From the NCBI GenBank assembly GCA_030699485.1, contig JAUYMM010000026.1, positions 1-47,547 of the forward strand: a stretch of 47,547 bases of DNA, given 5' to 3'. The notes beneath the pieces were generated by a model. That model made no database searches. It saw only the letters and a program-made list of their open reading frames with translations, and was not told where the DNA came from. The position numbers and the translations under genes are program-made. Shown in pieces: positions 5,619-31,291 of this stretch (positions are counted from its first letter, which is position 1; every line of letters begins with the position of its first letter). This DNA comes from Candidatus Woesebacteria bacterium (GTDB taxonomy: Bacteria; Patescibacteriota; Microgenomatia; UBA8517).

Positions 5619-5628
5619 AATAACTCCA

Positions 5629-5896: not shown

Positions 5897-5983
5897 CTAG
5901 AGATCTCCTTTTCTGAAAAATTTTGATCACAAAACATTTTTGCTTTGTGGGCCATTTTTTTTCAGAAAATATGTCAAAGGACT

Positions 5984-6091: not shown

Positions 6092-6119
6092 GTTAGTAGT
6101 TTAAAAAAAGATATGAGTC

Positions 6120-6148
6120 TTGTCAAGCGTCAAATATAATGGTATTAT
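6120..6148 (+). promoter_or_regulatory. sigma70-like promoter of the T-box leader
   Basis: TTGTCA (6120..6125), 17 nt, TATTAT (6143..6148). Confidence 0.45.
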
Positions 6149-6154
6149 TATTTT

Positions 6155-6330: not shown

Positions 6331-6337
6331 TTTAAAA

Positions 6338-6823: not shown

Positions 6824-6825
6824 AC

Positions 6826-7074
6826 ATGTTAGAATACGGGAATTTATTGTTAGACGATGAAACTATTAAAAGGTTTTGTAGGGAGTGGAAAAATAAGAAA
6901 GGCCCAAAAAATATGAAGGCTTTGACTACTAAAATTGGTGACAGGATATATGTTGGTACTGAAGAACCAACTGGAAATAAATATATTGACGAACAGTTAC
7001 TATATAGTGGTGATATAATTTTGACAAACGAAATGGGAGATGATTTAAAGAAGAAAAAGAAAGTTAAAAAGTAG
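6826..7074 (+). CDS. hypothetical protein (82 aa, Lys-rich C-terminal tail)
   Basis: ORF packed between the ybaK-like gene and aspS. No recognisable motif. Confidence 0.5.
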   Translation: MLEYGNLLLDDETIKRFCREWKNKKGPKNMKALTTKIGDRIYVGTEEPTGNKYIDEQLLYSGDIILTNEMGDDLKKKKKVKK

Positions 7075-7088
7075 TATTATATATAGAT

Positions 7089-14505: not shown

Positions 14506-14757
14506 TCATATCGATATTGAGATTATAACTTCCTTTTGTCCTTTTGTCAATTTTTTAATTTTAGCCTCTCTTTTTAATGCCTCGCTTCTTGTTTGATAAT
14601 TTTTAGTATGGACTAATTTAAAGCTATCAAAGACCTTCATGTATTTAGCAGATCTTTTTCCTTTCTCACGGTGTTCTTTTAATCGTTTTTCCAAATTATT
14701 GCTAATCCCCGTATATAAAGTGTTTTTGGAAGTTCGTAATATATAAACTGTATACAT
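14506..14757 (-). CDS. GIY-YIG nuclease superfamily small protein
   Basis: YTVYILRT...LYTGISNNLEKRLKEH motif, 83 aa. Confidence 0.8.
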   Translation of the reverse strand: MYTVYILRTSKNTLYTGISNNLEKRLKEHREKGKRSAKYMKVFDSFKLVHTKNYQTRSEALKREAKIKKLTKGQKEVIISISI

Positions 14758-15725
14758 TATTTAAGTAGTTTTAATGCTTCTTCTATAGATTTTGTTTCCA
14801 TAAGTTTAGATCTTAATTTATTTGCTCCGTTAAAGTTATTAATATACATTTTAAAGAATTTTTTCACAGTTTCATAACTGGTTACTTTATCGTTTGAATA
14901 TCCACTATCACATAATTTTAGATGTTTAATTAATATTTTTTTTGATTCTTCAAACGAATGTTCTTTGACTTTTTTTTCAAATACCCAAGGGTTTGAAAAT
15001 ATTCCTCGACCTATCATTATTCCATCAACATGAGACTCCTTAACCCTTTTTAGAGCCTCTTTATAGCTTTTTACGTCTCCATTGCCTATGATAATTGTAC
15101 TAGGTGAAATATCATCCTTAATCTTTACAGCTTTTTCAATTTCTTTCCAGTTTGCAGGTATATCTGACATTTGTTTAGAAGTTCTACCATGAACAGTTAA
15201 TGCATCTATTTTTTGTTCGAGTAAAAAAGTAATCCATTCTTCTGTTACTACTTCTTTGAATCCAATTCTAGTTTTCACACTAATGGGTAACTTTTTTGAT
15301 CCTTTTTTTGTAGCTTCAATTATTTCTTTTGCAAGTGGATGATTGTTAATTAAAGCAGAGCAAGCTCCAATTTTAACAACTGCACGATCAGGGCAACCCA
15401 TATTAATATCAATTCCATCAAAACCAAGTTTTTCAATTAGTTTTGCAGTTTTATAATAATTTTCAGGTTTTAGTCCCCAAATTTGAGCTACAATTGGTTT
15501 TTGTTCTTTACTAAATTTAAATCTAGGTATAGTTTTTTCCAAACCCAATGAATTTAGGGCTTCTACATTTGTAAATTCAGTGAACAATACATCAGGTTTT
15601 GGTAAATAGTTTGCAACAATTTCTCTAAAAATATAATCAGTCACCCCTTCCATTGGAGCAAGAACAGTAAATGGCCTTGGTAGTTTTCGCCAAAAATTGG
15701 TGGTATTAATTGTTTTAATACTCAT
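14757..15725 (-). CDS. dus: tRNA-dihydrouridine synthase
   Basis: LAPMEGVTD and DINMGCP (catalytic Cys), TIM-barrel Dus pattern. Confidence 0.85.
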   Translation of the reverse strand: MSIKTINTTNFWRKLPRPFTVLAPMEGVTDYIFREIVANYLPKPDVLFTEFTNVEALNSLGLEKTIPRFKFSKEQKPIVAQIWGLKPENYYKTAKLIEKLGFDGIDINMGCPDRAVVKIGACSALINNHPLAKEIIEATKKGSKKLPISVKTRIGFKEVVTEEWITFLLEQKIDALTVHGRTSKQMSDIPANWKEIEKAVKIKDDISPSTIIIGNGDVKSYKEALKRVKESHVDGIMIGRGIFSNPWVFEKKVKEHSFEESKKILIKHLKLCDSGYSNDKVTSYETVKKFFKMYINNFNGANKLRSKLMETKSIEEALKLLK

Positions 15726-16009: not shown

Positions 16010-17053
16010 TTAGGTTGGTAGTTTACCTAATACTCCTGCCAATAATGTCATTCTTACATATAGGCCATTCTTCATTTGCCTGAAATAGGCCGCATTTTTA
16101 GTATAAGTATCAACTTCTTTGGAAATCTCACCAACCCTAGGAAGTGGATGCATTATTGTCAGGGAGTCTTTTCCGGCATGTAGAGTTTCCGGCGTAACAA
16201 TATAAAGACTTTTTACAGATTCATAAAGAATAGGATCACTAAATCTTTCTTTTTGCACACGTGTAACATAAAGCACGTCTGTTTCTCCTAATACTTCAGA
16301 TAAATTTTTGTGTTCCGATTGTTGCACACCCTTAACTGCTAGTTCTTGAATAATTTCAGGTGGCATTCTCAAAATTTCGGGTGAAACATAATTAAGCTTA
16401 ACGTCATAAAGAGAAAGAAGCCTTGCCAAAGAATGAACTGTTCTTCCATGTTTCATATCACCCAACATGGTCACAGTAAGTCCATCTACCTTTCCTTGTT
16501 CTTTTCTGACTGTTACATAGTCTAGTAGTGCTTGGGTTGGATGCTCCCCAATACCATCGCCAGCATTTATTAACGGTATAGAAGTTGCCTCTGCGGCTAT
16601 TGCAGCTGAACCTGTTTCGGGGTGACGTAGGACAATAACATCCGCATATTGTTCGAGTGTGCGAACTGTGTCCTGTAAATCTTCACCTTTTGTAACAGAT
16701 GAGTATTCAACTCCATTTATAGGAATTACGCTTCCAGCCAATCTTTCCATTGCAGCTGTAAATGAAGATGAAGTTCGTGTTGATGGTTCGTAGAAAAGAT
16801 TTGCTAATATTTTTCTACTTAAAAAATCAGTTTTATAGCCTTTACTTGCAATCTCAGCCATTTCTAAACTCCAATCAAAAATATTATCAAGGGTTTTTGT
16901 ATCAAATTGCTGAATGGAAAGTATATCCTTACCCTTAAGGTTTCCGTTCAAGTGTTCTGCGGAATGATTAAGAGTATCTGTACCTCTTTGGTTTGCGCTT
17001 AAATCTACATTCATCCTCTGCAATAGAATATTCTCAATAAGTCTCCATGTCAA
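16010..17053 (-). CDS. pyrB: aspartate carbamoyltransferase catalytic chain
   Basis: FYEPSTRTSSSF, HPTQALLD, RVQKERF and HPLPR motifs. The track start is TTG at 17053; ATG at 17014 is an alternative. Confidence 0.85.
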   Translation of the reverse strand: MTWRLIENILLQRMNVDLSANQRGTDTLNHSAEHLNGNLKGKDILSIQQFDTKTLDNIFDWSLEMAEIASKGYKTDFLSRKILANLFYEPSTRTSSSFTAAMERLAGSVIPINGVEYSSVTKGEDLQDTVRTLEQYADVIVLRHPETGSAAIAAEATSIPLINAGDGIGEHPTQALLDYVTVRKEQGKVDGLTVTMLGDMKHGRTVHSLARLLSLYDVKLNYVSPEILRMPPEIIQELAVKGVQQSEHKNLSEVLGETDVLYVTRVQKERFSDPILYESVKSLYIVTPETLHAGKDSLTIMHPLPRVGEISKEVDTYTKNAAYFRQMKNGLYVRMTLLAGVLGKLPT

Positions 17054-17268: not shown

Positions 17269-18348
17269 ATGGCAAAAATAGAAACGGAAGTTTGGCCAAT
17301 AGAAACAAAAAAGTATATAGAACACGCCTTAAATTTCAATTCGGAAGAAATGCGCCTACGTGAATTAGCAATATCTGAAGTTCCAGATGGTGCGATAGAT
17401 ATGCATACTCATATGGGACTGGCTTCATATTCAGCTGGTATGGATCCAGTATTTCTATCTCGTTTGGTATCAATTTACCCATATTTTTCATATGAAGATC
17501 ATTTGAAGGTGCGGTCAGCTCTTTGGGATAATCGGAAAGATGTTAGACAGGTTGTTTTTACCTTTCCACTTAGAGGAATAGATTTCAGAGCAGGTAATCA
17601 ATATATTGAAAAGATATGTGCAAAGGACGAAGCACTCATTCCATTTTTGACTGGTGATCCTTACGACAATAGGTACACATTGTCACAATTAGATAACCCG
17701 AATTGGAAAGGACTAAAGATGTATTCCAAATTAATGTGGGAGGAAGTTCATAGAATAGTCGACTTTTTTCCTTGGCCAGTTCTTGAGAAAACCAATGATT
17801 TAGGATTGCCGATAACACTTCACTTGCCTCACAATTTGATGTGGGATATTGATGAGCTTGTAGACCTAGCAAGAAGATATGAGAATATGACTTTTCTTAT
17901 TGCTCATTTTGGTATTGCTCGAGGAAATAGAGAGGAAATAAATCGAGCAATAGCAATGACAGAAGATTCCCCCAATATTGTATATGAGACTTCTTTTTAT
18001 GTGCTACCTGAAGTTATATCTGAAGCTTTGCGTAGAGTAGGCCCGCAAAGAATAGTATATGGATCGGATAGACCATTAGACCTAGTAAGAGCTAAGTTTG
18101 TTTTCGGCCAGAATGGTGAGGAGAGACTTATAACAGATTACCCCTACCATTGGGTAAACAAAAAGGAACAAGATAGTCTTCGTACAAAAATTGTCGTCGA
18201 CCCAAGCGAAATTCCTAATATCTATTTCACCTCGTTATTTGCTTTGTTAGACGCTATCAAAGAAGTTTATCCTTCTTTTCAAGAACAACTTAGTGTTAAG
18301 CAAACTATTTTTGTAGATAATCCCAGTAGAATTTTAAAATTACTTTGA
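17269..18348 (+). CDS. metal-dependent TIM-barrel amidohydrolase-2 family protein
   Basis: IDMHTHMG (HxH), LHLPH, AHFG and YGSDRP motifs. Confidence 0.7.
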   Translation: MAKIETEVWPIETKKYIEHALNFNSEEMRLRELAISEVPDGAIDMHTHMGLASYSAGMDPVFLSRLVSIYPYFSYEDHLKVRSALWDNRKDVRQVVFTFPLRGIDFRAGNQYIEKICAKDEALIPFLTGDPYDNRYTLSQLDNPNWKGLKMYSKLMWEEVHRIVDFFPWPVLEKTNDLGLPITLHLPHNLMWDIDELVDLARRYENMTFLIAHFGIARGNREEINRAIAMTEDSPNIVYETSFYVLPEVISEALRRVGPQRIVYGSDRPLDLVRAKFVFGQNGEERLITDYPYHWVNKKEQDSLRTKIVVDPSEIPNIYFTSLFALLDAIKEVYPSFQEQLSVKQTIFVDNPSRILKLL

Positions 18349-18552
18349 AATTTCTAAAACCTGAGCTGATAACATGGAACTGACGCAAACCAGAAAACAT
18401 AAATTCTAATAGCCGGTACGTTGGGGACTCTGTAGCTACAATATTTTACCCAATTCATATCATAGATCATAATAGTAGTGTTACCCGTAAATTTAATTAA
18501 GATTTTAGAGCTTGATGTTGTAGACTTTAAATTCTAAACTATAGCTAGAAAA

Positions 18553-19500
18553 ATGAAATTGACGGTTGATAAAATCCTAAAAAACTCGGATATAAGGAAA
18601 CTAGGTTATATAAAAATCTGCAAACCCTTAGACCTAGGACTCGAGAGCCGAAACTTCCTATTAATTACTCCCTCTAACAAATACGTACTTAAATCTTATA
18701 AAAATACTTTATTAAATGAAGTCATTTTTGAAACCTCAATCCTTAGCCATTTAAAACGTTTCAACAATAAGTTCCCTTCGCCCATCAGAAAGGTTTTTTA
18801 TATTAACTCTTTACCGTGTGTTCTCTACACATTCATTGAGGGGCGTGGCCTCGTGCCACATGATATTAATATCTCTACGTTACAAAAGGTAGCAGAGTTA
18901 CAGGCATTAATACATAAAAACTTAGTCAATTTCATACCAGATGGTAACAGGGAAAGATTCTCAATATTTGATCTAAGTTTTGTAGACGACTTTAGATGCG
19001 ATTGCTCGAGAGAGGATACATTGCTCATTAAAAATTGTAGAGATTGGCTAGTAACAAGACTGAATAGATTTAAAAGAAGTAATTTCCCCAAATCAATAAT
19101 ACATGAAGATTTGGAGATGGAGAACATTCTTGTCGATAGAAAGGGAGATGTCAAATTTATTGATTTTGGTGAATCGCATAGGGCTGAAGTGGTAAGTGAT
19201 ATAGCAATTACTATAAAGGAGTTAATTGTAAACAATTATGGAACTAACACCAACAATCTTATTGGAGCATATTTAGACGCATATGAGGTAAATAATCCGG
19301 TTCTGAATGTAGTGCAGCTTAAAGTGTTATATACTTTATTTGTTAGAAGAGGCTTGTTTATGTTTTCATATTTTCTAAATAAGCAAGCTAAAAATAAAGA
19401 TCTATTTTTGAGCAGAAGAATCAAAATAGAAAGGAAGACACTCAAATTATTGTTGTTACCTAACGATTTAGAACAAAAAATAATTAGTTTTAAATTATGA
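18553..19500 (+). CDS. APH/choline-kinase-family small-molecule kinase
   Basis: Brenner motif IIHEDLEMENILV and KFIDFGES. Confidence 0.75.
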   Translation: MKLTVDKILKNSDIRKLGYIKICKPLDLGLESRNFLLITPSNKYVLKSYKNTLLNEVIFETSILSHLKRFNNKFPSPIRKVFYINSLPCVLYTFIEGRGLVPHDINISTLQKVAELQALIHKNLVNFIPDGNRERFSIFDLSFVDDFRCDCSREDTLLIKNCRDWLVTRLNRFKRSNFPKSIIHEDLEMENILVDRKGDVKFIDFGESHRAEVVSDIAITIKELIVNNYGTNTNNLIGAYLDAYEVNNPVLNVVQLKVLYTLFVRRGLFMFSYFLNKQAKNKDLFLSRRIKIERKTLKLLLLPNDLEQKIISFKL

Positions 19501-20510
19501 CTAGACTTAAAAAGAACGCAAAAGTTGGCCTAACACTAATGAAAATTGCCCCCTTTCATATCGGGCATAAGTATTTGCTAGACACCGCCCTACACGAAGT
19601 TGATCACTTAATTGCTGTTATTTATGATTGTCCAAATTTAACAGATATTCCCCTAAATGTTAGAGCAGGTTGGATCAGAAAACTTTATCCTCAAGTTGAA
19701 GTGATTGAGGGTTGGGATGCTCCAAATCAACATGAAGATACTTCTGAAGTGAAAAGAATGCAGGAACAGTATATAGCTGGTGTGTTAAAAGGTAGGAAAA
19801 TTACTCATTTTGTTTCATCCGAATATTATGGGGAACACATGAGCAAGTTTTTAAATGCAATTAATTTTATTATTGATATGGACAGGAAAAAACTGCAAAT
19901 ATCTTCAACAATGATTAGAAGTAATCTTTATAAATATAGAAAGTTTATCCCAACAATCGTCTTGAAAGATCTTTTAACAAAAGTGGTTATCCTAGGTGCT
20001 CCTAGCAATGAAAATGAAAAGATTGTTAAAGAAGTTTCTCGTAGACTTGAAACAAACTGTTTTCCAGATATATCTGTAAAACACCTTTCTCAGAATAACT
20101 CTATTAAACCTAGTCGAGAGCTAGACTTTATAGACATAGCACAAAAAAGAAATATCCAAAGATCTAATGAGAAAATTATCCACGATGCTAATGAGTCAAT
20201 AATTTATAGCTCCTCAATTCTTATGGATTATATATTATCAATGACTGTGAACAGAAAATACGATCAAAAATTACACGATCTTGCAAGAGAAGAAATATCA
20301 AACTATGATTTAGTATTTGTAAATTCAGATAAAACAAATATTATCAGTAAAAATTATGGAATTGAAAACACTTACATAAATAATCAGCTTTTTGGAAATT
20401 TGGTTGAAATGAAGATTCCTTATACATTATTAAAAGGTAATTTCGAACAAAAGGTGCAAACAATCGTTAATAAAGTTAAAATAGACATCAAATCTAAGAA
20501 AAAAATCTAA
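19497..20510 (+). CDS. NadR-like nucleotidyltransferase (HxGH cytidylyl/adenylyltransferase fold) with degenerate C-terminal P-loop domain
   Basis: PFHIGHKYLL and ISSTMIR motifs. C-terminal VVILGAPSNENEK lacks the GK[ST] of a Walker A. ATGA overlap with the kinase gene. Confidence 0.65.
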   Translation: MTRLKKNAKVGLTLMKIAPFHIGHKYLLDTALHEVDHLIAVIYDCPNLTDIPLNVRAGWIRKLYPQVEVIEGWDAPNQHEDTSEVKRMQEQYIAGVLKGRKITHFVSSEYYGEHMSKFLNAINFIIDMDRKKLQISSTMIRSNLYKYRKFIPTIVLKDLLTKVVILGAPSNENEKIVKEVSRRLETNCFPDISVKHLSQNNSIKPSRELDFIDIAQKRNIQRSNEKIIHDANESIIYSSSILMDYILSMTVNRKYDQKLHDLAREEISNYDLVFVNSDKTNIISKNYGIENTYINNQLFGNLVEMKIPYTLLKGNFEQKVQTIVNKVKIDIKSKKKI

Positions 20511-20512
20511 AA

Positions 20513-21703
20513 ATGAATTATTTAAGTGGTGGGGTAAACTCACCCATACCTATTCCTAAAAATTTCCCAAATAATATTATTGCTGGGGAGGGTCCTTACG
20601 TAATAGACAAAAATGGTCAAAAATACATAGATATGTGGATGGGTTATGGTGCTCTTTTGTTTGGACACGCAGATAAGGAAATTATTCAAACGACTAGTAA
20701 GTGTTTAAAAAATGGCTGGTTCTTTTCATATCAAACTAAAATAGAGAAAGATTTTTCATCTGTTTTACACGATCTGATCCCTTGTGCGGAGAGAGTGCGT
20801 TTTGCTACCACAGGATCTGATGCTGTGGCTTATGCAATACGTGCAGCACGAGCTTACACTTCTAGGGATATGGTCTTATCTGTCGTTGGTGGATACCACG
20901 GAGTCCATGAAGCAATGATAGCAAGTGAAGGTATAGCTTTTAAAAATAAACCAGATTTAGTTCATTTTAATAACACCAAAGAATCAATAAAAGCCATAAA
21001 AACCAAAAAATATGCATGTATGATATTGGAGCCAATAATGGCAAATTCGGGTTGTACTCCACCATTACCAGGTTATCTACAGGCACTGCGAAAAGCATGT
21101 GATGAAACTAATACTGTTTTAATTTTTGATGAAGTGGTAACAGGATTTAGAATTAATCTAGGTGGTGCTCAGAAGAAATATGGTGTAACACCCGATTTAT
21201 CAACGTTTTCTAAAGCTATTGCGTGTGGATTACCCTTATCTGTCGTGTGCGGAAAGGTATCGATCTTGGATAAATTTATTCCTACGGGTAATGTTTTTTT
21301 TGCTGGAACTTTTAATGCCCACCCCCTTTCTTTGGCAGTTGGTACTCTCGTAATTGAAATGCTTAGGGATGGTAAAATACACTCTCGGATCACTAAATTG
21401 GGAAATCGGTTGAGATCTTTTATTTCAAATTCTATTAATAAGTATGATCTTAATGCTTGTGTTCAGGGTACTGATTCAATGTTAACAGTAGCTTTTGGTT
21501 GTAAAGATTTTGTTCATGGTATCAGTAATGAAAAGTTCAATCAAAAAACTTATGATATATTTGTTAAGAAAATGGCTGAGAGGAAAATATTGTTTCCTCC
21601 ACTACCAACAGAAACTGTTTTTCTATCCCCAGTACATGAAGCGGTGATTGAAAAAATAGAAAAAGCATTTGATGAAGTTTTTTTGGAAATAAAAAATTTG
21701 TGA
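20513..21703 (+). CDS. class III PLP aminotransferase, glutamate-1-semialdehyde aminomutase (HemL)-like
   Basis: GGVNSP start, DEVVTGFR, and PLP-Lys context TFSKAIACG. Confidence 0.75.
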   Translation: MNYLSGGVNSPIPIPKNFPNNIIAGEGPYVIDKNGQKYIDMWMGYGALLFGHADKEIIQTTSKCLKNGWFFSYQTKIEKDFSSVLHDLIPCAERVRFATTGSDAVAYAIRAARAYTSRDMVLSVVGGYHGVHEAMIASEGIAFKNKPDLVHFNNTKESIKAIKTKKYACMILEPIMANSGCTPPLPGYLQALRKACDETNTVLIFDEVVTGFRINLGGAQKKYGVTPDLSTFSKAIACGLPLSVVCGKVSILDKFIPTGNVFFAGTFNAHPLSLAVGTLVIEMLRDGKIHSRITKLGNRLRSFISNSINKYDLNACVQGTDSMLTVAFGCKDFVHGISNEKFNQKTYDIFVKKMAERKILFPPLPTETVFLSPVHEAVIEKIEKAFDEVFLEIKNL

Positions 21704-21712
21704 TAAATATCT

Positions 21713-22936
21713 ATGGATAATCAAAAACTAAAAATATTGAAAGATCTTAATAAAACAATAGAGCTTGCTAAAGGTACAAAACTCTATAAGAATAAAAAAC
21801 TCCATAAATTAAATTCACTAACTGAACTGTCAAAATTACCATTTACCTCAAAAGAAGATTTAAGGGATTCTTATCCATACGGAGGACTTGCTGTTCCACA
21901 AAGTGAAATTATAGAAGCTCATACGACATCTGGCACAACAGGTAAACCTACTCTTTCTTTTTTTACGAAAAAAGATCTCGCAGAAGGGTCCAAAGCTATT
22001 TCTGAAGCTTGGAGAACTTTTGGAATTAATAAAAAAAGCAAAGTAATGTTTATCATGAGTTATGGTTTATATAGTGGAGCGGCGTTGAATACTTATGCTA
22101 TCCAGAGTATAGGAGCATTTGTTTTACCATCTGGTATACAACCTGTTTTGACTCAATTAAACTTCATGGTTGATTTTGAAATTGATACCATAATAGCTAC
22201 CCCAGGTTATTTACTCTACCTCTATCAATGGATGAAAACAAATAAATTCGACCGCTCAAAACTTAAGTTAATAAGAGCAATTGCTGCTGGAGAAGTTTAT
22301 TCAAATGATATTCGAGAGGATATAGAAAATAAACTTCAAATAAAAGTTTTCGATCATTATGGTTTGTGTGAAGTAAATACAGGAATAGCATATGAGTGTA
22401 CAGAAAGAAAGGGGTTACATGTAATAGATGACTATGTTATTCCGGAAGTTGTTGATCCAAAAACCAATAAGGTTTTACCTGTTGGGGAATATGGTGAACT
22501 AGTCTTCACGAGTTTAAGAAAAGATGCATCACCAATAATTCGATACAGAACAAAAGACATTACCTGTATCATGCCTGGGAAATGCCCTTGTGGAAGAAGT
22601 AGAATAAGAATTGGTCGGATCAAATCAAGAATTGGTGAAACATTATTTATCAAAGGTTTAAAAATTGACCCATATGAATTAAGAGATTTTGTAAGAAAAT
22701 ACTTAGGCTCAAAGCTTTTTGCGGGTGATATTCAAATTATTATCAAAGAAAACGATATTAAATTCATACCAAAAATTCTAATGACTTTTGTTAAAAATGA
22801 TCCAAAAGTTTTGAGGAATCTCCAGCTAAAAATTTATGAGTTTACAAAGGTGAAATTTCAGGTTAAAAATGTTCCGCAAGAATTCTTTAACAGAGAAAAA
22901 AATAATAAAGTTAAATTTATCGTTCATGAAAAATAG
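21713..22936 (+). CDS. adenylate-forming enzyme, PaaK / CapK / F390-synthetase / LuxE-like
   Basis: HTTSGTTGKPT AMP-binding motif, ~400 aa short ANL architecture. Confidence 0.75.
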   Translation: MDNQKLKILKDLNKTIELAKGTKLYKNKKLHKLNSLTELSKLPFTSKEDLRDSYPYGGLAVPQSEIIEAHTTSGTTGKPTLSFFTKKDLAEGSKAISEAWRTFGINKKSKVMFIMSYGLYSGAALNTYAIQSIGAFVLPSGIQPVLTQLNFMVDFEIDTIIATPGYLLYLYQWMKTNKFDRSKLKLIRAIAAGEVYSNDIREDIENKLQIKVFDHYGLCEVNTGIAYECTERKGLHVIDDYVIPEVVDPKTNKVLPVGEYGELVFTSLRKDASPIIRYRTKDITCIMPGKCPCGRSRIRIGRIKSRIGETLFIKGLKIDPYELRDFVRKYLGSKLFAGDIQIIIKENDIKFIPKILMTFVKNDPKVLRNLQLKIYEFTKVKFQVKNVPQEFFNREKNNKVKFIVHEK

Positions 22937-24113
22937 ACAAAACGAAATATCAAGTTTGTGCAAAGATTTGCTTAATTGGATTAAGAAGAATAAAAATGCT
23001 TTATTACTCTTGAATAGTAAATGTTCTCAAGATACTGAATTTAGTATGAGTAATGATTTTGATTTTGTCTGTTCTGTACTAGAGTCATTTTATAAAAATA
23101 ATCTTCATTTATTTAATCAAAGACTTAAACCTAAGGGAAAGGTGATAATAATTCTTTCTTACAACGAACCTATGACTATGTCCATAATTCCAGTTTTAAA
23201 CGCTTTAGTTGCAGGTAACAAACTTACAGTAAGGCCCAGTTCTCGCGGTCGAGATATATTTAATTATATTTGGCGCGAAAGTGGAATAATTGATAAATAC
23301 AAACTTGATTTAAAAATTCGGGAACAAGATAGTTTATCAGACGCAGAGCTTAAAAATACTCAAGCTTTATATTTTTTTGGAGGATATAAAAATGCAAAAA
23401 AGATGTCTATTTTGTGTTCGAAGTATTTTATAGAGTTTTATCCACAAATTGAAGCTGCAGATTTCAAGATTATCAAATATGATCATTCTGAAAATTTTGA
23501 TATAAAACAAGATGTTGAAACAACTTTGAACGAAGCGTTTTCCCATAACGGTCAATCTTGCCAAAGAGTTCAAGGAGTTTTTGTTGCAGAAAGAGACTAT
23601 AAAAAATATTCAGATAACATGTTAACTAGTTTTAATAAATTTTGCCATTCCTCAGAAATAAAAAATTATATATCAGAAAATTTAGATGTTGATAAGAAGA
23701 TTATTAAATCTACAATTCTTGAAATTTCAAAATCAAAACCTATGAAAATAATAAAAGCCCCTACTAAATTAGGATTGCCAATATTAGTCCTTGATCCCAA
23801 TCCTGCAAGTATTTTTGTTCAGTCAGCGTACTTTTTACCAGTTATATGGATAGCAAAGTATTCGTCTGAGAAGGAACTTCTTGAATATATCGGATTACGT
23901 CAATTTCATCTAGGAATAAATATTCAGTCAGACAATGAAGATTTCATTTCTAGAATTATCTCAAACACCAATTATACGAGATATACTGTTAATACTGATC
24001 ATTCAAGAGTTAGACCAGAAGAGGGGTGGGGAGGAACATGGCCAAGTGGCTACACTGGTTATAGAAGTTGGATTGAACTTTTTTCTTATCCCTACGAAAT
24101 TATTAGGAAGTGA
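22926..24113 (+). CDS. aldehyde dehydrogenase superfamily protein, LuxC-type acyl-CoA/acyl-adenylate reductase-like
   Basis: Catalytic Cys context HNGQSCQRVQGVFV. Start taken at ATG 22926 (MKNRQNE), an 11-nt overlap with the upstream gene; the track start is 22869. Confidence 0.6.
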   Translation: MKNRQNEISSLCKDLLNWIKKNKNALLLLNSKCSQDTEFSMSNDFDFVCSVLESFYKNNLHLFNQRLKPKGKVIIILSYNEPMTMSIIPVLNALVAGNKLTVRPSSRGRDIFNYIWRESGIIDKYKLDLKIREQDSLSDAELKNTQALYFFGGYKNAKKMSILCSKYFIEFYPQIEAADFKIIKYDHSENFDIKQDVETTLNEAFSHNGQSCQRVQGVFVAERDYKKYSDNMLTSFNKFCHSSEIKNYISENLDVDKKIIKSTILEISKSKPMKIIKAPTKLGLPILVLDPNPASIFVQSAYFLPVIWIAKYSSEKELLEYIGLRQFHLGINIQSDNEDFISRIISNTNYTRYTVNTDHSRVRPEEGWGGTWPSGYTGYRSWIELFSYPYEIIRK

Positions 24114-24135: not shown

Positions 24136-25416
24136 TTATTTCCCAGAAGTAATTTTTAACATATTAAGTGATCTTTTTCCTAATCTAATGATAAAATGAC
24201 TGTTTTTATCTAACTTAACATTCTCTGTTTTTGGATCAATTGCTACACCGTTAATATAAAAGCCGTCTTGTTCGATTAACTTTTTTACACTAGTTTTACT
24301 TTTGGCTAGATTTGTTTCAACGAGTAGACCAATTAAGGTTTTAATGCTTATATCACCAGGTTCTAACTGGCGACTTAGTATTGACTTAGGAGCTTCCATT
24401 TTTTGAACTGTTTTTTGGAAGAATTTAGCAGCTTGATCGGCTGCATCTTCACCATCATATAGTTTAACAATCTCATGAGCCAGCACTTTTTTAAGTTCGA
24501 TTGCATCAGCAGTTCCTTCGTGCAGTTCTTTTGTGGCTTTTTTTACAAATTCCATTGGAAAACGAGTAGCACACTCCATATATACAGGAATCAACGAATC
24601 GGAAATTTTCATCAATTGAACATATTTTATTTCAGGCTTATCGTTAATCCAGATACAATTACCTTTGCTTGTACTCATTTTGTCTCCGTCTAAACCAATC
24701 AATAGTAGTGTGGTCATATAATCCTGTGGAGGCATTCCGAATGCTTTTTGTACATCCCTTCCTTTTGTAAGATTGTATGTTTGATCGGTTCCTCCCAACT
24801 CAACATCTGCCTTAATCTTGACAGAATCATATGCCTGAAGTAGAGGATAAAAGGCCTCAGTAAAAGATACACTATCTCCACGTTTTATTCTTTTAGCAAA
24901 ATTGTCTCTTCCGGAGGCCTCTTGTAGGGTTTGGCATGAAGTAAGTTTTAATAGAGTCTGTAGAGATATATTTTTTAGCCAATCAGCATTATGAACAAGT
25001 TCTAGTTTGGAAGTATCAAGAATTCTCGAGAACTGATTCATGTAATCTTTGATATTTTCAGCTATCTGTTGGGGAGTTAATCCTTTTCTTGCTCCAGGTT
25101 TATCTGAAGTGTCTCCTACTTGAGCTGTACCATCTCCGATAATTATAACTATTTGATGACCTAGATCTTGAAATTCCTTTAATTTTAAAAGAGTGGCTCC
25201 TCTGCCAACATGAAGCCTCGAGCCTGTTGGATCAATCCCAAGTTTAACTCTTAAAACAGTGTCTGGATCAAGTAGTCTTTCTCGTAAATGTTGACTATCA
25301 GCCACTTCAACCACACCCCTTGTCAAGAGCTCGTCTACTCTTTGTTCCAGTTCTTTACCTCTACTTATTTCACCCATACCTTCTTTATTATATGATATTA
25401 ATGTTTCTTCGTTCAT
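24136..25416 (-). CDS. tyrS: tyrosine--tRNA ligase with C-terminal S4-like domain
   Basis: GIDPTGSRLHVGRG (HIGH variant), IIIGDGTAQVGD, KMSTSKG. Confidence 0.9.
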   Translation of the reverse strand: MNEETLISYNKEGMGEISRGKELEQRVDELLTRGVVEVADSQHLRERLLDPDTVLRVKLGIDPTGSRLHVGRGATLLKLKEFQDLGHQIVIIIGDGTAQVGDTSDKPGARKGLTPQQIAENIKDYMNQFSRILDTSKLELVHNADWLKNISLQTLLKLTSCQTLQEASGRDNFAKRIKRGDSVSFTEAFYPLLQAYDSVKIKADVELGGTDQTYNLTKGRDVQKAFGMPPQDYMTTLLLIGLDGDKMSTSKGNCIWINDKPEIKYVQLMKISDSLIPVYMECATRFPMEFVKKATKELHEGTADAIELKKVLAHEIVKLYDGEDAADQAAKFFQKTVQKMEAPKSILSRQLEPGDISIKTLIGLLVETNLAKSKTSVKKLIEQDGFYINGVAIDPKTENVKLDKNSHFIIRLGKRSLNMLKITSGK

Positions 25417-25520: not shown

Positions 25521-26831
25521 ATGAAAGAAAATGGTCACCCAACTTTATCTGAAAGGGCCTTACTTTTTCCTGATAATCCGATCAGAGGATTAGAAGAACT
25601 TGCTATTCAGACAAGAGCAAAGGGTGTAGAAGTAATACCATTAAACATTGGATCTCCTGATACAACAACTCCAGAAGTGGTCTTATCAGCAATTAAACAG
25701 TTTGTAGATAAAAGTGTAAATATTGGTTATGGGCCTTCCTCTGGGGATTCTGAATTAATTAAGAAAAGATCTTTTTTTTATAAAGATCGATTGAATATAG
25801 ATATTAGTCCTAAAAATATCTTGATTACTCAAGGAGCAAGTGAAGCTTTAGAGTTGGCTATTTTCTCAGTGGCTAATCCCGGTGACGAAATAATAGTGAT
25901 TGAGCCTTTTTTTCCGAACTATAAAGCAATTGCTGAGAAATTTAATGTTGGGTTACGTGGTGTTACCACAAGAATAGAAGATGGTTTCCATGTTATTAAA
26001 GCTGGAGAATCACGAGAAGAATCACTAAAAAGAATCGATGAAGCTGTTAATTCGAGAACTAAGGCTATCCTTTGGAGTTCTCCAAGTAACCCGACAGGAG
26101 CTGTTTATGGAAAAAGTGAATTGGAACTATTGTATACAATTGCCAATAAACATAATTTATTTTTGATAGCCGATGAAGTTTATCGTCTTCTTATATTTAA
26201 TGAAGGAGTTAAATCAAACGGCGTTGTAAGATCACCATCAATTTTTGATATTGTTCCTCAATCAGATAGAGCAAGGGTAATAGGTATCGACAGTTCTTCT
26301 AAGGAGATATCTTTTTGTGGTGGTAGGATAGGTTATCTTATTGTAGATGAATCGTTATCTCCAACAATATTGAAAAATGCCTCAATAAGGGCATGCCCAG
26401 CTATTTTATCACAAGAAGCTGTGAAAGAAATAGTTAATGTAACCCCTGATTATTTTTCTGGCAACCAGGAAGAATTAAAGAAAAGACGCGATTTTCTACA
26501 TCAAGAATTATCTAATATGAAAAATCTGGGAGTGTCAGTATCTTCAAATCCACCGGAAGGCGCCTTTTATATAATTGTTGATTTGGGAAAACAAATATCG
26601 GCTGAAAAATTCTGTAAGTGGCTTTTGACTGATTTCACCGAAGAAAATGGTAGCAATGAAACAGTTTTACTTACACCAATGAGGATGAACACAGGAGGAT
26701 TTTATTTAGACAAAAATACGGGTACTAGCCAAATAAGAATAGCATACGTAAGAAAAATGGATGAGCTAGTTAAAGGAATAGACATTCTCAAATTGGCTTT
26801 AGAAATATATTTAAAAAAAGAAGTTTCTTAA
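25521..26831 (+). CDS. class I/II PLP aminotransferase (aspartate/aromatic type)
   Basis: SPSNPTGAV and SSSKEISFCGGRIGY (PLP Lys and Arg). Confidence 0.8.
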   Translation: MKENGHPTLSERALLFPDNPIRGLEELAIQTRAKGVEVIPLNIGSPDTTTPEVVLSAIKQFVDKSVNIGYGPSSGDSELIKKRSFFYKDRLNIDISPKNILITQGASEALELAIFSVANPGDEIIVIEPFFPNYKAIAEKFNVGLRGVTTRIEDGFHVIKAGESREESLKRIDEAVNSRTKAILWSSPSNPTGAVYGKSELELLYTIANKHNLFLIADEVYRLLIFNEGVKSNGVVRSPSIFDIVPQSDRARVIGIDSSSKEISFCGGRIGYLIVDESLSPTILKNASIRACPAILSQEAVKEIVNVTPDYFSGNQEELKKRRDFLHQELSNMKNLGVSVSSNPPEGAFYIIVDLGKQISAEKFCKWLLTDFTEENGSNETVLLTPMRMNTGGFYLDKNTGTSQIRIAYVRKMDELVKGIDILKLALEIYLKKEVS

Positions 26832-28481: not shown

Positions 28482-28934
28482 ATGATTACATTTTTGGCAA
28501 GTATTTTAATATGGCTAATGTTTTTTGGTTTAATTGTTCTTTGGATAATTGATGGAAAAATTAAAAAAGAAACAGTAATCCACGCTATCTTTTCTTGTTT
28601 TTTGGCTTGGGTGGTAACAGAAGCAATTAAAGCTTTTTTCCCAACATTAAGACCATTTCAAGTTCAGGATTTAGTACCATTAACACTAACGATTCCTGGA
28701 GATGGTGCATTTCCTTCAACTCATACCGCAATTGCTTTTGCGTTATCGATAACAATATTTAAACATGACAAAAAAATTGGAGTTTTATATCTTGTAATGG
28801 CAGGGCTTGTAGGTATTGCAAGAATCATAGCCCATGTCCATTATCCTATTGATATTATGGCTGGAGCAGTCATTGGAGTTGTTATTTCAGGCTTGACATC
28901 TAGCAAACACTTTGTTAGACTGCTAAATCGATGA
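28482..28934 (+). CDS. PAP2-family phosphatase (undecaprenyl-diphosphatase-like)
   Basis: KAFFPTLRP, PSTHT and HYPIDIMAG motifs. Start moved to ATG 28482 to avoid overlap with the divergent dgkA. Confidence 0.8.
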   Translation: MITFLASILIWLMFFGLIVLWIIDGKIKKETVIHAIFSCFLAWVVTEAIKAFFPTLRPFQVQDLVPLTLTIPGDGAFPSTHTAIAFALSITIFKHDKKIGVLYLVMAGLVGIARIIAHVHYPIDIMAGAVIGVVISGLTSSKHFVRLLNR

Positions 28935-31291
28935 GAACAGTACCAATAATACCAATTAGAGGCTCAGTAGTTTTTCCCCATACGGATACCTTGTTGTCCT
29001 TTGCACGTTCAAAATCTGTCACTGCGGCAGATGAAGCTTTTACCAAAGATAGGTTGGTTGCAATTTTCACTCAAAAAGATTCAAGAATTGGAGATCCTGA
29101 AAAAGAAGACCTTTTTGAAATAGGAACTATTGCAACAATTACTCAAATGATGTCTGTTGAAGATGGTGTTCATGCTTTAGTTAGGGGTCAGGCAAGAGTT
29201 AGACTTTCAGAAATAGTTTCAAGAGCTCCTTTTTTGGTTGGGACTGTTGAAGAACTACCTGATATTGTAGATGAATCATCAGAAGTAATTGCATTATCAA
29301 GAAATTTAGCAGAAACATTTAAAAAGGCACTTATGTTAGGTAAGACTGTTGAAATAATTTCTGTTGTTAAATTAATTTCTGAGACTTCAAATCCGTCAGA
29401 ATTAACTGATCAAATTGCTACAGTTTTAGATATTAAACCAATTGAAAAACAAGAAATACTTTCTACTTTTCCATTAATTTCAAGAATGAAAAAAGTTCAC
29501 GAACTTCTTTCAAAGGAAATAACTATTTTAGAAATTGAAAAAACCATATCATCAAAAACTCAAGAACAGTTTGATGAAATTATGAAGAAAAATATTCTTC
29601 GTGAGAGGAAAAAGGCAATTAACAAAGAATTAGGAGAAGCTGATGAAAAAGAGGGAGAAGTAGGTTCTGAAGAAGTAAAAGAATACAAGAAAAAAATAGC
29701 TGATGCCAAAATGCCTAAAGAAGTGGAAGAAAAAGCTTTAAAAGAACTTAATAAATTATCAAAGATGAGCTCTTTTAATCCTGAATCAGGTTTTTTAAGA
29801 AATTATTTAGATTGGCTCTGTGAAGTTCCTTGGAGTGTTGTCAGTCCTAATAATGTATCTATTAAAAAAGCAGGCAAGGTAATGGAAAAAAGGCATTATG
29901 GATTAGATAAGACAAAGACGAGAATACTGGAATATCTTTCTGTTATGAAACTTTTGGAAGAAAGAAAAAAGAAAGGCAAGGATAGTAATTTTCAACCAAC
30001 AATATTATGTTTTATTGGTCCTCCTGGAGTTGGGAAAACTTCAATTGGAAGAGCAATAGCTGAAGCAATGGGAAGAAAATTTGCGAGAATATCTTTAGGT
30101 GGTATACGAGATGAGGCAGAAATAAGGGGTCACAGAAGAACATATGTAGGAGCACTTCCTGGAAGAATTATTCAAGGAATTAAAACTGCGGGAACCCGAA
30201 ATCCTATATTTATGTTGGATGAAATTGATAAAGTTGGAGCAGATTTTAGAGGTGATCCAAGCTCAGCTCTTCTTGAAGCTCTTGACCCTGAACAAAATAA
30301 AGAATTTTCAGACCACTACCTAGAAGTAAACTTTGATTTATCTGATGTCTTTTTTATAGCAACAGGTAATGTACTAGACACTATTCCATCTGCACTTAAA
30401 GATAGAATGGAAGTAATACAATTTGCAGGTTATACAGAAGAAGAAAAATTTGAGATTGCAAATAGATTTATTTGGCCAAAACAACTTAAAAATCATGGGC
30501 TTGAAGACTCTAAAATTAAAGTTACTGATAAAGCCTTAAAGTTAATTATTTCTCGTTACACAAGAGAGTCGGGCGTAAGAAATTTAGAAAGAAATTTAGC
30601 TACAGTGTTAAGAAAGATTGCAAGACTTGTTGCAGAAAAAAAGAAATATCCGCGAATAATTAAAGAAAAACAAATAAGACAATACTTAGGATCCAATAAG
30701 TTTTCATCTTTAATTGCCGAGAAGAAAAATGAAATTGGAATGTCAACAGGACTTGCCGTAACCTCAGTGGGTGGAGAGATTTTATTTATTGAAATTTCTT
30801 TAATGCCAGGAAAAGGCAGACTTACATTAACGGGGCAATTAGGAGATGTTATGAAAGAATCAGCACAGGCTGCATTTACTTGGACAAGATCAAATTATAA
30901 ACTTTTAGGATTAAAACCAGATTTTTCTGCAAAATTAGATGTCCATATACATGTTCCTGAAGGAGCAGTACCTAAAGATGGACCATCCGCTGGAACTGCA
31001 ATAACAACAGCACTTGTATCTGCACTTACAAAAACTCCCGTTAAAAGAGAGGTTGGAATGACTGGAGAAATTACACTTCGCGGTAATGTTATGGAAATTG
31101 GAGGAGTTAAAGAAAAAACAATTGCAGGTCATAGAGCAGGATTAAAAACAATAGTTCTGCCTAAAGAAAATCAAAAAGATATGGAAGATGTGCCAGAAAA
31201 AGTTAAAAAAGATATTAATTTTGTCTTTGCAGAAAAAATTGAAGATGCTTTAAAAGTTGCCCTCACCAAATGGCCAATTGTGGTAAAATAA
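28931..31291 (+). CDS. lon: ATP-dependent Lon protease
   Basis: N-terminal LON domain, GPPGVGKTS Walker A, PKDGPSAG catalytic Ser. Confidence 0.95.
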   Translation: MRTVPIIPIRGSVVFPHTDTLLSFARSKSVTAADEAFTKDRLVAIFTQKDSRIGDPEKEDLFEIGTIATITQMMSVEDGVHALVRGQARVRLSEIVSRAPFLVGTVEELPDIVDESSEVIALSRNLAETFKKALMLGKTVEIISVVKLISETSNPSELTDQIATVLDIKPIEKQEILSTFPLISRMKKVHELLSKEITILEIEKTISSKTQEQFDEIMKKNILRERKKAINKELGEADEKEGEVGSEEVKEYKKKIADAKMPKEVEEKALKELNKLSKMSSFNPESGFLRNYLDWLCEVPWSVVSPNNVSIKKAGKVMEKRHYGLDKTKTRILEYLSVMKLLEERKKKGKDSNFQPTILCFIGPPGVGKTSIGRAIAEAMGRKFARISLGGIRDEAEIRGHRRTYVGALPGRIIQGIKTAGTRNPIFMLDEIDKVGADFRGDPSSALLEALDPEQNKEFSDHYLEVNFDLSDVFFIATGNVLDTIPSALKDRMEVIQFAGYTEEEKFEIANRFIWPKQLKNHGLEDSKIKVTDKALKLIISRYTRESGVRNLERNLATVLRKIARLVAEKKKYPRIIKEKQIRQYLGSNKFSSLIAEKKNEIGMSTGLAVTSVGGEILFIEISLMPGKGRLTLTGQLGDVMKESAQAAFTWTRSNYKLLGLKPDFSAKLDVHIHVPEGAVPKDGPSAGTAITTALVSALTKTPVKREVGMTGEITLRGNVMEIGGVKEKTIAGHRAGLKTIVLPKENQKDMEDVPEKVKKDINFVFAEKIEDALKVALTKWPIVVK

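Follow-up and report, generated by a model that had tools for sequence, protein, structure and literature searches.

Some gene clusters that make inhibitors of an aminoacyl-tRNA synthetase (aaRS) carry the gene of the target enzyme. For example, agrocin 84 is linked with LeuRS, mupirocin with IleRS, indolmycin with TrpRS, and albomycin with SerRS. Another precedent comes from lactic acid bacteria, whose tyramine operon, tyrS-tdcA-tyrP, places tyrS within tyrosine-related small-molecule metabolism. The cluster of the tiarins is a further aaRS-inhibitor cluster with a copy of the target aaRS, and an aaRS gene close to a biosynthetic cluster is accepted as a sign that the product may be an aaRS inhibitor (bioRxiv 10.64898/2025.12.02.691738). 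In this study, we analyzed a stretch of 47,547 nucleotides from a Candidatus Woesebacteria bacterium (assembly GCA_030699485.1, contig JAUYMM010000026.1, positions 1 to 47,547 of the forward strand), which is hereafter called the window. The subject is an operon of five genes in this window, which encode an APH-fold kinase, a NadR-derived adenylyltransferase (NadRl), a HemL-derived aminotransferase, a PaaK-type ligase, and an enzyme from the superfamily of aldehyde dehydrogenases (ALDH), and which stand beside tyrS, the gene of tyrosyl-tRNA synthetase (TyrRS). The operon is an accessory, horizontally shuffled unit of ultra-small prokaryotes (Patescibacteria and DPANN) that is genetically tied to tyrS, and it probably makes or degrades a nucleotide-bearing small molecule that is possibly related to tyrosine.

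As in the aaRS-inhibitor clusters, a specific aaRS gene stands amid variable small-molecule enzymes, the core is conserved while the tailoring varies, the predicted chemistry includes adenylyl transfer, and four lineages have the gene of an S66 peptidase (LdcA/MccF family) next to the cassette. Unlike in those clusters, the TyrRS is ordinary-looking and not co-inherited with the core, it has no signature specific to linked copies, no exporter accompanies it, and the hosts are symbionts of about 1 Mb instead of classical producers. Some metabolic routes are also comparable. In phenylethylamine and tyramine catabolism, an amine oxidase or transaminase, the aldehyde dehydrogenase FeaB/StyD, and PaaK lead to arylacetyl-CoA, and the cassette likewise has an amine-to-aldehyde enzyme, an ALDH, and a PaaK-type ligase. 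In contrast to the tyramine and arylacetate systems, it has no paa ring-degradation genes, tyrosine decarboxylase, or antiporter, and its kinase and nucleotidyltransferases have no counterpart there. The N-acyl-protected routes to arginine and lysine (ArgB/C/D/E and LysZ/Y/J/K) proceed by carboxylate activation, semialdehyde reduction, class-III transamination, and deprotection by a hydrolase. The same step logic can be read from the cassette, and M20 or Amidohydro_2 genes are found in some of its loci, but activation would be by an ANL ligase, the reductase is of the ALDH type and not the ArgC type, the hydrolases are sporadic, and the kinase and nucleotidyltransferase are additional. Routes of the Kennedy or Lic type also have a kinase and a nucleotidyltransferase, but no head-group transferase recurs in the 67 loci that we mapped.

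The enzyme families and the single steps are familiar. Their combination, the exchange of modules that are not homologous, and the link with tyrS in both bacteria and archaea are not. The genomes of Patescibacteria and DPANN archaea are very small and encode hardly any biosynthesis. Because the operon, an accessory pathway with five or six genes, has been kept, shuffled, and exchanged over about 45 lineages and two domains despite these tiny genomes, we believe that the pathway must matter for the lifestyle of its hosts. Its near-obligatory position by tyrS is unusual and is otherwise known mainly from the aaRS-inhibitor clusters and the tyramine operon. The operon could yield a new nucleotide-linked metabolite (an antimetabolite, cofactor analogue, or signal) of uncultured symbionts, a new HemL-like function, an APH-fold kinase that replaces the dead kinase domain of NadR, and a rule of general use when candidate phyla are mined for operons linked to aaRS genes.

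Conservation and Layout of the Operon

The survey comprised 67 loci, the window and 66 further ones, which represent 45 ALDH lineages at 90% identity. The loci were obtained by searching an ALDH-family alignment against GTDB genomes (14 loci) and JGI metagenomes (47 loci) and by contig look-ups. Open reading frames (ORFs) were called heuristically and clustered by all-against-all BLASTP with thresholds, and the comparators are all metagenomic contigs, many of them from groundwater sites (Hainich, with contigs named Hain-H4x/H5x, and Rifle). The ALDH family is small; a set of 5.8 billion proteins contained about 102 clusters of it at 90% identity, and its named members belong to Patescibacteria (Woese-, Blackburn-, Taylor-, and Berkelbacteria) and to one Woesearchaeota (DPANN).

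The ligase and the ALDH form the invariant core. The ligase gene lies immediately upstream of the ALDH gene in 55 of the 56 loci with enough upstream sequence, the sole exception being a short contig (L065), and the two genes overlap by a median of 23 nt. The pairwise identities of the two proteins are correlated (Spearman 0.59). The order kinase, NadRl, aminotransferase, ligase, and ALDH was found in 17 lineages, with median spacers of -4, +1, +9, and -23 nt, and the median of -4 nt between kinase and NadRl holds in 21 loci. Because the order and the near-zero spacers repeat in 17 independent lineages, the packing of the five genes is not due to chance. An earlier reading of this DNA, made without database searches (the sequence-only reading), had suggested a comparison of gene neighborhoods, and the co-localization of the five genes proved to be conserved.

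In the window, the block is led by the kinase gene (18553-19500, forward strand, 315 aa), which overlaps the NadRl gene (19497-20510, forward, 337 aa) by an ATGA at 19497-19500, as was checked on the sequence. After a gap of 2 nt (20511-20512) follows the aminotransferase gene (20513-21703, forward, 396 aa), and after a gap of 9 nt (21704-21712) the ligase gene (21713-22936, forward, 407 aa). The frame of the ALDH gene (22926-24113, forward, 395 aa) is open from 22869, and the overlap with the ligase gene is 68 nt with this longest start and 11 nt with the ATG at 22926. We took 22926 because the public gene call uses it (395 aa) and the length fits all homologues. With this start, the packing is exactly as the sequence-only reading had given it, and the six ORFs that it had listed on the forward strand, the five above and an upstream amidohydrolase gene, were found at its coordinates. 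Its family names were each backed by Pfam and NCBIfam scans. It had recognized no named pathway, and this also agrees with our results, as no NCBIfam equivalog cut-off was reached and no description of the cluster turned up in the literature searched. By these scores, the proteins diverge within known superfamilies and are not orthologous to any named enzyme. The most constant partner of the operon, the TyrRS gene, falls outside the coordinates that it had considered (17269-24113).

The cassette has a GC content of 0.30-0.36, which resembles the rest of the window. The scan for promoters and terminators gave a signal no higher than the shuffled expectation. The PADLOC models of anti-phage defence gave generic kinase-loop matches for the kinase only and nothing for the other seven proteins.

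Linkage of the Operon to tyrS

In the window, the TyrRS gene (24136-25416, reverse strand, 426 aa) is convergent with the ALDH gene across a spacer of 22 nt. Its product matched tRNA-synt_1b (4e-61) with an S4-like C-terminal domain and TyrRS structures in the PDB (2e-64). TyrRS is the third most widespread cluster in the neighborhoods, and no other housekeeping family recurs likewise. It was present in 48 of the 67 loci, in 35 of the 45 lineages, and in 13 of the 14 loci with long flanks (>7 kb upstream and >1.6 kb downstream). The gene can stand first (before the kinase gene or before the gene of a 258-aa protein, U258), in the middle of the operon, after the ALDH gene, or convergent with it; in L005, L030, and L047, it lies between the aminotransferase and ligase genes. 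In loci where it has the same direction as the operon, it mostly shares 4 nt with the gene that follows (U258 in 14 loci and the kinase in 5), and it is often translationally coupled. In the contigs of Woesearchaeota, the cluster is headed by a TyrRS of the archaeal type, which scored 424 bits with NF006330 (cut-off 220). As controls, we used four TyrRS loci of genomes that have no cassette. Their TyrRS is 45-50% identical to that of the window, and no ligase or ALDH gene was found within 7-8 kb. We also considered whether the flanks of TyrRS are always variable islands and rejected this, since plain housekeeping genes flank the gene in 2 of the 4 controls.

The linked TyrRS proteins belong to at least five divergent sequence types and an archaeal one. 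The type of the window has HVGR in place of HIGH and KMSTS in place of KMSKS. Among 6,268 homologues, Shapirobacteria, other Woesebacteria, and further groups also have HxGR and KMS[ST]S motifs in their ordinary TyrRS, and no residue convincingly separates the 12 linked from the 4 unlinked TyrRS of type i. A dedicated or resistant TyrRS paralogue is unsupported, as the motifs are shared with ordinary patescibacterial TyrRS and no residue proved specific to the linked copies. Most simply, the linked gene would be the working TyrRS of each lineage, and a mobile core would have been repeatedly selected beside tyrS. An Rfam gathering scan of the window and five loci gave tRNAs only, with no T-box or riboswitch upstream of the operon or tyrS. 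No tRNA-Tyr was found near the loci; the tRNAs of the window are tRNA-Gln and tRNA-Glu.

The sole well-covered locus without TyrRS, L007, has an IS481-family transposase beside the cassette and a NadRl gene that is frameshifted into two ORFs (4729-7587), and it is possibly a decaying or relocated copy. L061 carries two different full-length TyrRS genes in tandem (674-1978 and 2250-3566), of types iii and iv, which are roughly 40% identical as judged from other members of these types. Downstream of the pair are U258, a transposase-like gene, an Fe-dependent alcohol dehydrogenase (Fe-ADH) gene, and the ligase and ALDH genes.

The Ligase and ALDH Core

The ligase was matched by Pfam PaaK (4e-73) and by PaaK in the PDB (6e-62), with many identities along the N-terminal domain, but its scores against the PaaK equivalogs were far from the cut-offs (246.4 against 700 and 239.3 against 646.3). 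In 39 members, the P-loop (SGTTG), DHYGLCEVNTGI, and IRYRTxD are kept, as are lysines of the C-terminal part near residue 400. The P-loop, A5, and A8 are thus conserved, and we propose that the lysines are the equivalent of motif A10. About 63 residues follow the PaaK-aligned core, with no C-terminal Cys, and we take it that the ligase keeps the C-terminal subdomain. The positions Tyr136, Phe141, and Ala147, which we take to be those of the PaaK1 pocket, align with Met, Tyr, and an invariant Asn. No paa gene was found in any mapped locus, and a literature search on the DVU_1553 ligase family found nothing.

The ALDH was matched by Pfam Aldedh at 3e-17, and its invariant residues include Cys212, Asn80, and Glu176. 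Judged from its position only, we propose that Glu176 is the general base of the ALDH; the second ALDH glutamate (EEIFGP) is replaced. An AlphaFold2 (AF2) model of the protein had a pLDDT of 87, and Foldseek matched it to generic ALDHs (aminoaldehyde and betaine-aldehyde dehydrogenases, ALDH2, and ALDH3) at 14-18% identity.

The sequence-only reading had compared this pair with LuxE and LuxC. In the LuxCE scheme, an acid is converted to an acyl-AMP, a thioester, and then an aldehyde; LuxE is without the C-terminal subdomain and has a C-terminal acyl-accepting Cys motif, and LuxC is without the Asn and Glu of ALDHs (PMC9157457). The cassette is like LuxC-LuxE and the carboxylic-acid reductases in that the gene of an adenylate-forming enzyme from the PaaK/ANL lineage stands directly next to that of an ALDH-superfamily protein that has a catalytic Cys. 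The comparison fails in detail, because the LuxC score is under the cut-off (PF05893, 17.1 against 21), the ALDH keeps Asn80 and Glu176, and the ligase has its own C-terminal sequence with the lysines in place of the Cys motif. LuxC was also absent from the top 50 Foldseek matches, and membership in LuxCE was rejected on these grounds. The pair may still be able to work like a carboxylate reductase.

The Aminotransferase

The aminotransferase is a class-III enzyme that depends on pyridoxal phosphate (PLP), and it is the best-conserved protein of the cassette, with about 60% identity between distant lineages. It matched Aminotran_3 at 1.7e-48 and HemL at 1e-94, and it aligned over its full length with glutamate-1-semialdehyde aminomutase (GSAM) in the PDB (2.9e-62). 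Its scores were under the cut-offs of both HemL models (PRK00062, 317.7 against 398; TIGR00713, 311.7 against 527.3), and GntE of guanitoxin biosynthesis was matched with 242 bits. The Schiff-base Lys (STFSKAI) and the equivalent of Glu406 (PTETVFLS) are kept in all members. In GSAM, the loop Ser29-Pro30-Val31-Arg32 forms hydrogen bonds with the diaminovalerate intermediate (PMC7338781). The substrate loop of the cassette enzyme reads NSPIPIP where GSAM has NSPVRAF, so that 18 of 18 cassette members have Pro where GSAM has Arg32. Because Arg32 is replaced in all members, we regard the protein as a HemL-derived enzyme whose substrate should bind differently from that of HemL. The identity as a HemL that makes 5-aminolevulinate was rejected, since Arg32 is lost and both HemL cut-offs were missed. 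The enzyme resembles HemL and GntE in fold, PLP Lys, Glu406 equivalent, and overall sequence, and it differs from them in the Pro at position 32, the scores under the family cut-offs, and the absence of tetrapyrrole and guanitoxin genes nearby. By analogy with GntE, the activity is most likely that of a plain aldehyde/primary-amine transaminase.

The Kinase and the NadR-like Adenylyltransferase

The kinase has an APH (eukaryotic-like) fold and was matched by Pfam APH at 3.7e-19. Because its score for homoserine kinase PRK05231, the best NCBIfam match, is far under the cut-off (67.1 against 271 bits), it is not an orthologue of homoserine kinase; the score for APH(3') was 25.9 against 205. The beta3 Lys, the catalytic loop IHEDLxxxNI, and FIDFG are kept in 14 family members. 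A sequence search of the PDB gave marginal matches to protein kinases only, with no close solved structure, and an AF2 model made without an alignment was unusable (pLDDT 31). A 136-aa antisense ORF (18825-19235, reverse strand) lies wholly within the kinase gene; it is almost certainly a mechanical by-product of the ORF listing and not a gene.

NadRl was matched by TIGR01526, the NCBIfam model of NadR with its nicotinamide mononucleotide (NMN) adenylyltransferase (NMNAT), at 6e-21 (75 bits against a cut-off of 341), and by NMNAT and NadR structures in the PDB (4.7e-15); the public annotation calls it a hypothetical protein. In all 16 members from the loci, HxGH and ISSTxxR are kept and the Walker A motif is lost; the window protein has GAPSNENEK where NadR has GAPSTGKTT. 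Outside the candidate phyla, its nearest relatives share 36-40% identity with it along the full length (E about 1e-65), are annotated as NadR or AAA ATPase, and come from Paenibacillus, cyanobacteria, and Bacteroidales. Two of them were looked up; both lie directly downstream of PnuC, and one also has an NrtR-like regulator. These PnuC-linked relatives belong to classical nicotinamide-riboside salvage.

When 119 homologues were split on the Walker A motif, 51 were without it (cassette-type) and 68 had it (true NadR). Both groups share nearly the whole NMNAT consensus (GLxLxKxAPFHxGH, IPLNxRAxW, VIEGWDAPN, and THFxSSEYYGxHMS), and the 51 cassette-type sequences have lost the P-loop together with most of the residues that are conserved in the kinase domain. 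Most of these 51 are on contigs with lengths equal to those of the contigs of the ALDH hits, and the largest apparent exception, P0247, sits in a full cassette with TyrRS. Wherever it was examined (the locus maps and L072/L073), the P-loop-less protein was beside the core, and it was never seen without the aminotransferase. No PnuC-like sequence was found in the window or any collected locus, Pfam found no HTH family in NadRl, and the TIGR01526 match begins at profile position 61. As PnuC is absent from the loci, salvage of NAD linked to PnuC was dropped as an explanation.

Compared with PnuC-NadR salvage, the cassette shares the NMNAT consensus and the same two-step logic of a kinase followed by an adenylyltransferase. 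It differs in the degenerate RNK domain of NadRl, in the missing HTH and PnuC, in the unrelated APH-fold kinase that is coupled by gene overlap, and in a NadRl subfamily that is confined to the cassette, unlike the PnuC-linked NadR. We infer that the APH-fold kinase now does the work of NadRl's dead kinase domain. Judging from the conserved residues, NadRl more probably adenylylates an NMN-like ribotide supplied by the adjacent kinase than the amine of the aminotransferase, and the riboside may be plain nicotinamide riboside or a modified one.

Alternative Modules around the Core

Three sets of genes were found around the core. Set A, as in the window, consists of the kinase, NadRl, and the aminotransferase, and the full trio is present in 17 lineages. 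Set B consists of U258 and the Fe-ADH, which occur together in 10 lineages. Set C occurs in L012 of Parcubacteria and in the archaeal loci. Its additional genes encode a GTP cyclohydrolase II of the RibA type (154 bits, cut-off 148), an M20 hydrolase, and another kinase, which is APH/choline-kinase-like. The sets never mix, as the aminotransferase was never found with the Fe-ADH, nor NadRl with the Pol-beta nucleotidyltransferase. A single U258 sequence gave no Pfam match, but the alignment has a Pol-beta signature with invariant G39, D51xD53, and E82, and 6 of the 14 members match PF01909/PF18765 (best E 4e-6).

A third type of protein, of 350 aa, lies between the ALDH and TyrRS genes in L003 (11278-12330), L009, L046, and L048. 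It is a very divergent, class-Ic aaRS-like protein with HVGT and KMGKS and no anticodon-binding domain, and its best matches are archaeal TrpRS (1e-4) and archaeal-type TyrRS. Every well-covered lineage has the core and some adenylyl-transfer-type protein (NadRl, Pol-beta, or class-Ic aaRS-like), and each of these three unrelated proteins is found in loci without the other two. Most well-covered lineages also carry an aldehyde-handling enzyme.

The locus L002 of Blackburnbacteria looks bare but in fact carries, upstream of its ligase gene (5596-8773), another Pol-beta nucleotidyltransferase and 61 codons that are left of the aminotransferase gene. In the same place, it also has a D-2-hydroxyacid dehydrogenase and a DmpG-type 4-hydroxy-2-oxovalerate aldolase (230 bits against a cut-off of 229).

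Proposed Pathway and Competing Explanations

The gene order, its conservation and modularity, the retention or loss of catalytic residues, and the TyrRS linkage were established in this study. The direction, the substrate, the product, and the sharing of the aminotransferase's molecule by the kinase and NadRl are what we infer from them. The whole picture that we tentatively favor, with a probability of roughly 0.35, is a reductive route that acts on tyrosine or a tyrosine-derived acid and leads to a nucleotide-bearing product. In this route, the ligase would adenylate a carboxylic acid, and the ligase and ALDH would interconvert the acid and the aldehyde, preferably in the reductive direction. 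In set A, the aminotransferase would convert the aldehyde to a primary amine, the kinase, translationally coupled to NadRl, would phosphorylate, and NadRl, with its intact NMNAT domain, would then adenylylate. In set B, the Fe-ADH would yield an alcohol, and the Pol-beta-fold nucleotidyltransferase would stand in for NadRl. The end product would most likely be an AMP- or ADP-linked derivative of the reduced acid, and the two finishing modules would be different ways of drawing off the same aldehyde. Since TyrRS is the only constant non-enzymatic theme, tyrosine or an aryl acid derived from it is the most likely starting acid, and the aryl acid fits the PaaK ancestry of the ligase. The reductive direction is favored because set B then uses every gene in one line and because an oxidative route would leave the activated acid without a consumer in the cluster. 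The sequence-only reading had assumed a similar chemistry, and its conversion of a carboxylate to an aldehyde and an amine is still the most economical one. Its single linear chain of transamination, phosphorylation, and nucleotidylylation is unsupported, as NadRl keeps the NMNAT-domain residues of PnuC-linked NadR.

Some observations weigh against the reductive route. PaaK-type ligases are not known to activate alpha-amino acids. No transporter, exporter, or transferase is conserved across the mapped loci. The TyrRS is not co-inherited with the core, as the Spearman coefficient between ALDH and TyrRS is 0.24, and between the window and L022 the identity is 82% for the ALDH and 84% for the ligase but only 31% for TyrRS. 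NadRl resembles a true NMN adenylyltransferase, and it may simply make NAD, apart from the amine. The DmpG-type aldolase of L002 belongs to enzymes that usually handle small aliphatic aldehydes. Moreover, Asn80 and the proposed Glu176 resemble hydrolytic, oxidizing ALDHs, unlike LuxC, and because the ALDH keeps these residues, oxidation is equally compatible with it.

The last point leads to a catabolic, energy-conserving funnel, in which an amine, an alcohol, or, in L002, a 4-hydroxy-2-oxo acid would give the aldehyde and the ALDH would oxidize it to the acid. The funnel is unlikely in our view, and so is its proposed end, in which the ligase would activate the acid, as in the known route that leads from phenylethylamine or tyramine over phenylacetaldehyde and phenylacetate to phenylacetyl-CoA, or run backwards and make ATP from acyl-CoA, AMP, and PPi. 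It would explain the Cys/Asn set and the invariant Glu in the position expected for a general base, as in oxidizing ALDHs, the best Foldseek matches to aminoaldehyde and betaine-aldehyde dehydrogenases, the C-terminal sequence of the ligase past the PaaK core with its conserved lysines near residue 400, and the meeting of three different aldehyde-linked enzymes (the aminotransferase, the Fe-ADH, and the aldolase) at the same core. The logic of amine, aldehyde, arylacetate, and CoA ester is also established for the PaaK pathways of E. coli and Pseudomonas (paa/fea). The funnel offers no role for the kinase or for the three alternative proteins of the nucleotidyltransferase type, and it does not account for the TyrRS coupling; an acyl-CoA-using enzyme was found in no mapped locus, and ATP synthesis by an AMP-forming ligase is rare. 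If the operon does serve ordinary catabolism, it would be a new energy source on the sparse metabolic maps of these organisms. An explanation that we find similarly doubtful is a composite of separate units, in which the kinase and NadRl would perform NAD salvage of the nicotinamide-riboside type, with the APH-fold kinase in place of the dead RNK domain, and the aminotransferase, ligase, and ALDH would be a separate aldehyde pathway. Patescibacterial operons often mix functions, and the NMNAT consensus of NadRl is near-identical to that of PnuC-linked NadR of Paenibacillus and Bacteroidales; in L054, TyrRS and a further 2.3 kb or so past it lie between the trio and the core. What does not fit separate units is that the P-loop-less NadRl keeps to core loci, never without the aminotransferase and with no PnuC, and that the Fe-ADH lineages use a different nucleotidyltransferase instead. 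The composite would explain the adjacency of tyrS as co-expression with a constitutively transcribed essential gene, an idea to which we give equally little credit, as hitch-hiking fails to explain TyrRS as the constant hub, the archaeon included.

Another explanation starts from TyrRS as a target. Tyrosinol-AMP is a textbook aminoalkyl-adenylate inhibitor of TyrRS, and the operon might make such a non-hydrolysable mimic of tyrosyl-adenylate, which we consider quite unlikely. With set B, the ligase would turn tyrosine into an activated ester, from which the ALDH would make tyrosinal, the Fe-ADH tyrosinol, and the ANT-like nucleotidyltransferase U258 tyrosinol-AMP; the window version would be a related amine-linked nucleotide conjugate. 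The tyrS gene would be a target-linked dosage or immunity partner, and the S66 (MccF-family), M20, and Amidohydro_2 hydrolases and the kinases would serve in self-protection or prodrug processing; MccF is the immunity enzyme of microcin C and cleaves aminoacyl-adenylate mimics. An ordinary TyrRS with a non-congruent phylogeny, the NMN-type conservation of NadRl, and the lack of exporters count against it. If it were true, episymbionts would carry a translation-targeting antimetabolite or a TyrRS-directed regulator. We give still less weight to the head-group model of the sequence-only reading, in which a small hydroxy or amino acid would, by reduction, transamination, phosphorylation, and nucleotidylylation, become a CDP- or ADP-activated amino alcohol for a head group of the envelope or lipids, in the Kennedy or LicA/LicC manner. 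A choline/ethanolamine/homoserine-kinase-like fold beside an enzyme of the cytidylyltransferase superfamily would suit this model, as would the small polar aldehydes that Fe-ADH and DmpG-type enzymes usually handle and the PlsC-type acyltransferase and HAD phosphatase genes after the ALDH gene in three loci. On the other hand, LicD or a CDP-alcohol phosphatidyltransferase recurs in none of the 67 loci, NadRl is of the NadR type and not the CCT/ECT/TagD type, an amine made from a plain acid has no hydroxyl to phosphorylate, and the TyrRS coupling would be unexplained. A tRNA-independent C5 route, in which the ligase and ALDH would give glutamate-1-semialdehyde and the HemL-like enzyme 5-aminolevulinate, is effectively refuted. 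HemL is the top-scoring family of the aminotransferase and there is a formal analogy to the set of an aaRS, a reductase, and HemL, but the change of Arg32 in all 18 members and the scores under both cut-offs contradict it; tetrapyrrole genes are in no mapped locus, and in other lineages the Fe-ADH replaces the module.

Neighboring Genes

The amidohydrolase (17269-18348, forward strand, 359 aa; an Amidohydro_2 family metal hydrolase/decarboxylase) had been counted as a sixth enzyme of the cassette by the sequence-only reading. The five genes hold as a conserved unit, but the amidohydrolase is irregular; it was found in 5 of the 45 lineages, and it is on the opposite strand in L024. In the window, 204 nt separate its gene from the kinase gene. 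It matched Amidohydro_2 at 2e-17, with the HxH motif (DMHTHMG) and a C-terminal GSDRP visible in the translation, and a sequence search of the PDB gave no match. The 297-kb contig L068, which has no ligase or ALDH gene nearby, carries an orthologue next to TyrRS that shares 57% identity with the copy of L024. The amidohydrolase is a loose neighbor and not a regular member of the cassette. In L068 (6733-16148), TyrRS is flanked by this orthologue and then by two Nudix genes, followed by radical-SAM/SPASM, DegT-type aminotransferase, APH/choline-kinase-like, and PHP-like genes. This block may be another TyrRS-adjacent accessory set.

Two-component systems (6 lineages) and the S66 LdcA/MccF-family peptidase (4 lineages) are recurrent neighbors. 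The S66 gene borders the cassette in L020 (11398-12384), L072 (16485-17516), L012 (2625-3650), and L038 (12974-14005), and the copies of L020, L072, and L012 are divergent (42-113 bits against an LdcA cut-off of 378). A histidine kinase gene lies just upstream of the set-A cassettes in L072 (6588-8697), L038 (3077-5186), and L020 (2001-3662), and a gene for a receiver-domain protein follows it in L038 and L072. L012 has three histidine kinase genes after the ALDH gene, one of them with a 7-TM N-terminus.

Other genes follow the ALDH gene in single lineages or a few. In L006 (5673-7746), with an overlap of 14 nt with the ALDH gene, there are genes for a 260-aa protein without a family, a PduO-type Cob_adeno_trans protein, and an NTPase_I-T protein (ITPase/XTPase), and the recognizable ones all handle nucleotides. 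The PlsC-type acyltransferase and HAD phosphatase genes lie after the ALDH gene in L008 (11159-12428), L012 (11268-12642), and L051, which are two lineages at 90% identity.

Directly past TyrRS, the window has a gene for a class I/II aminotransferase (25521-26831, forward strand, 436 aa), which could be an aromatic aminotransferase. The same gene (cluster c62) also stands after TyrRS in the related locus L024, and these are the only two loci with it. Just upstream of the amidohydrolase gene are three genes on the reverse strand, whose identities were read from the translations only: a GIY-YIG-like small protein (14506-14757), a dihydrouridine-synthase-like protein (14757-15725), and an aspartate-carbamoyltransferase-like protein with a TTG start (16010-17053). 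Besides TyrRS, the window is crowded with aaRS genes (7089-8474, 10446-11732, 32884-34332, and 35492-36727), which are two of the class-II Asp/Asn/Lys type, one of the GluRS type, and one SerRS, and it also has a Lon protease gene at 28931-31291.

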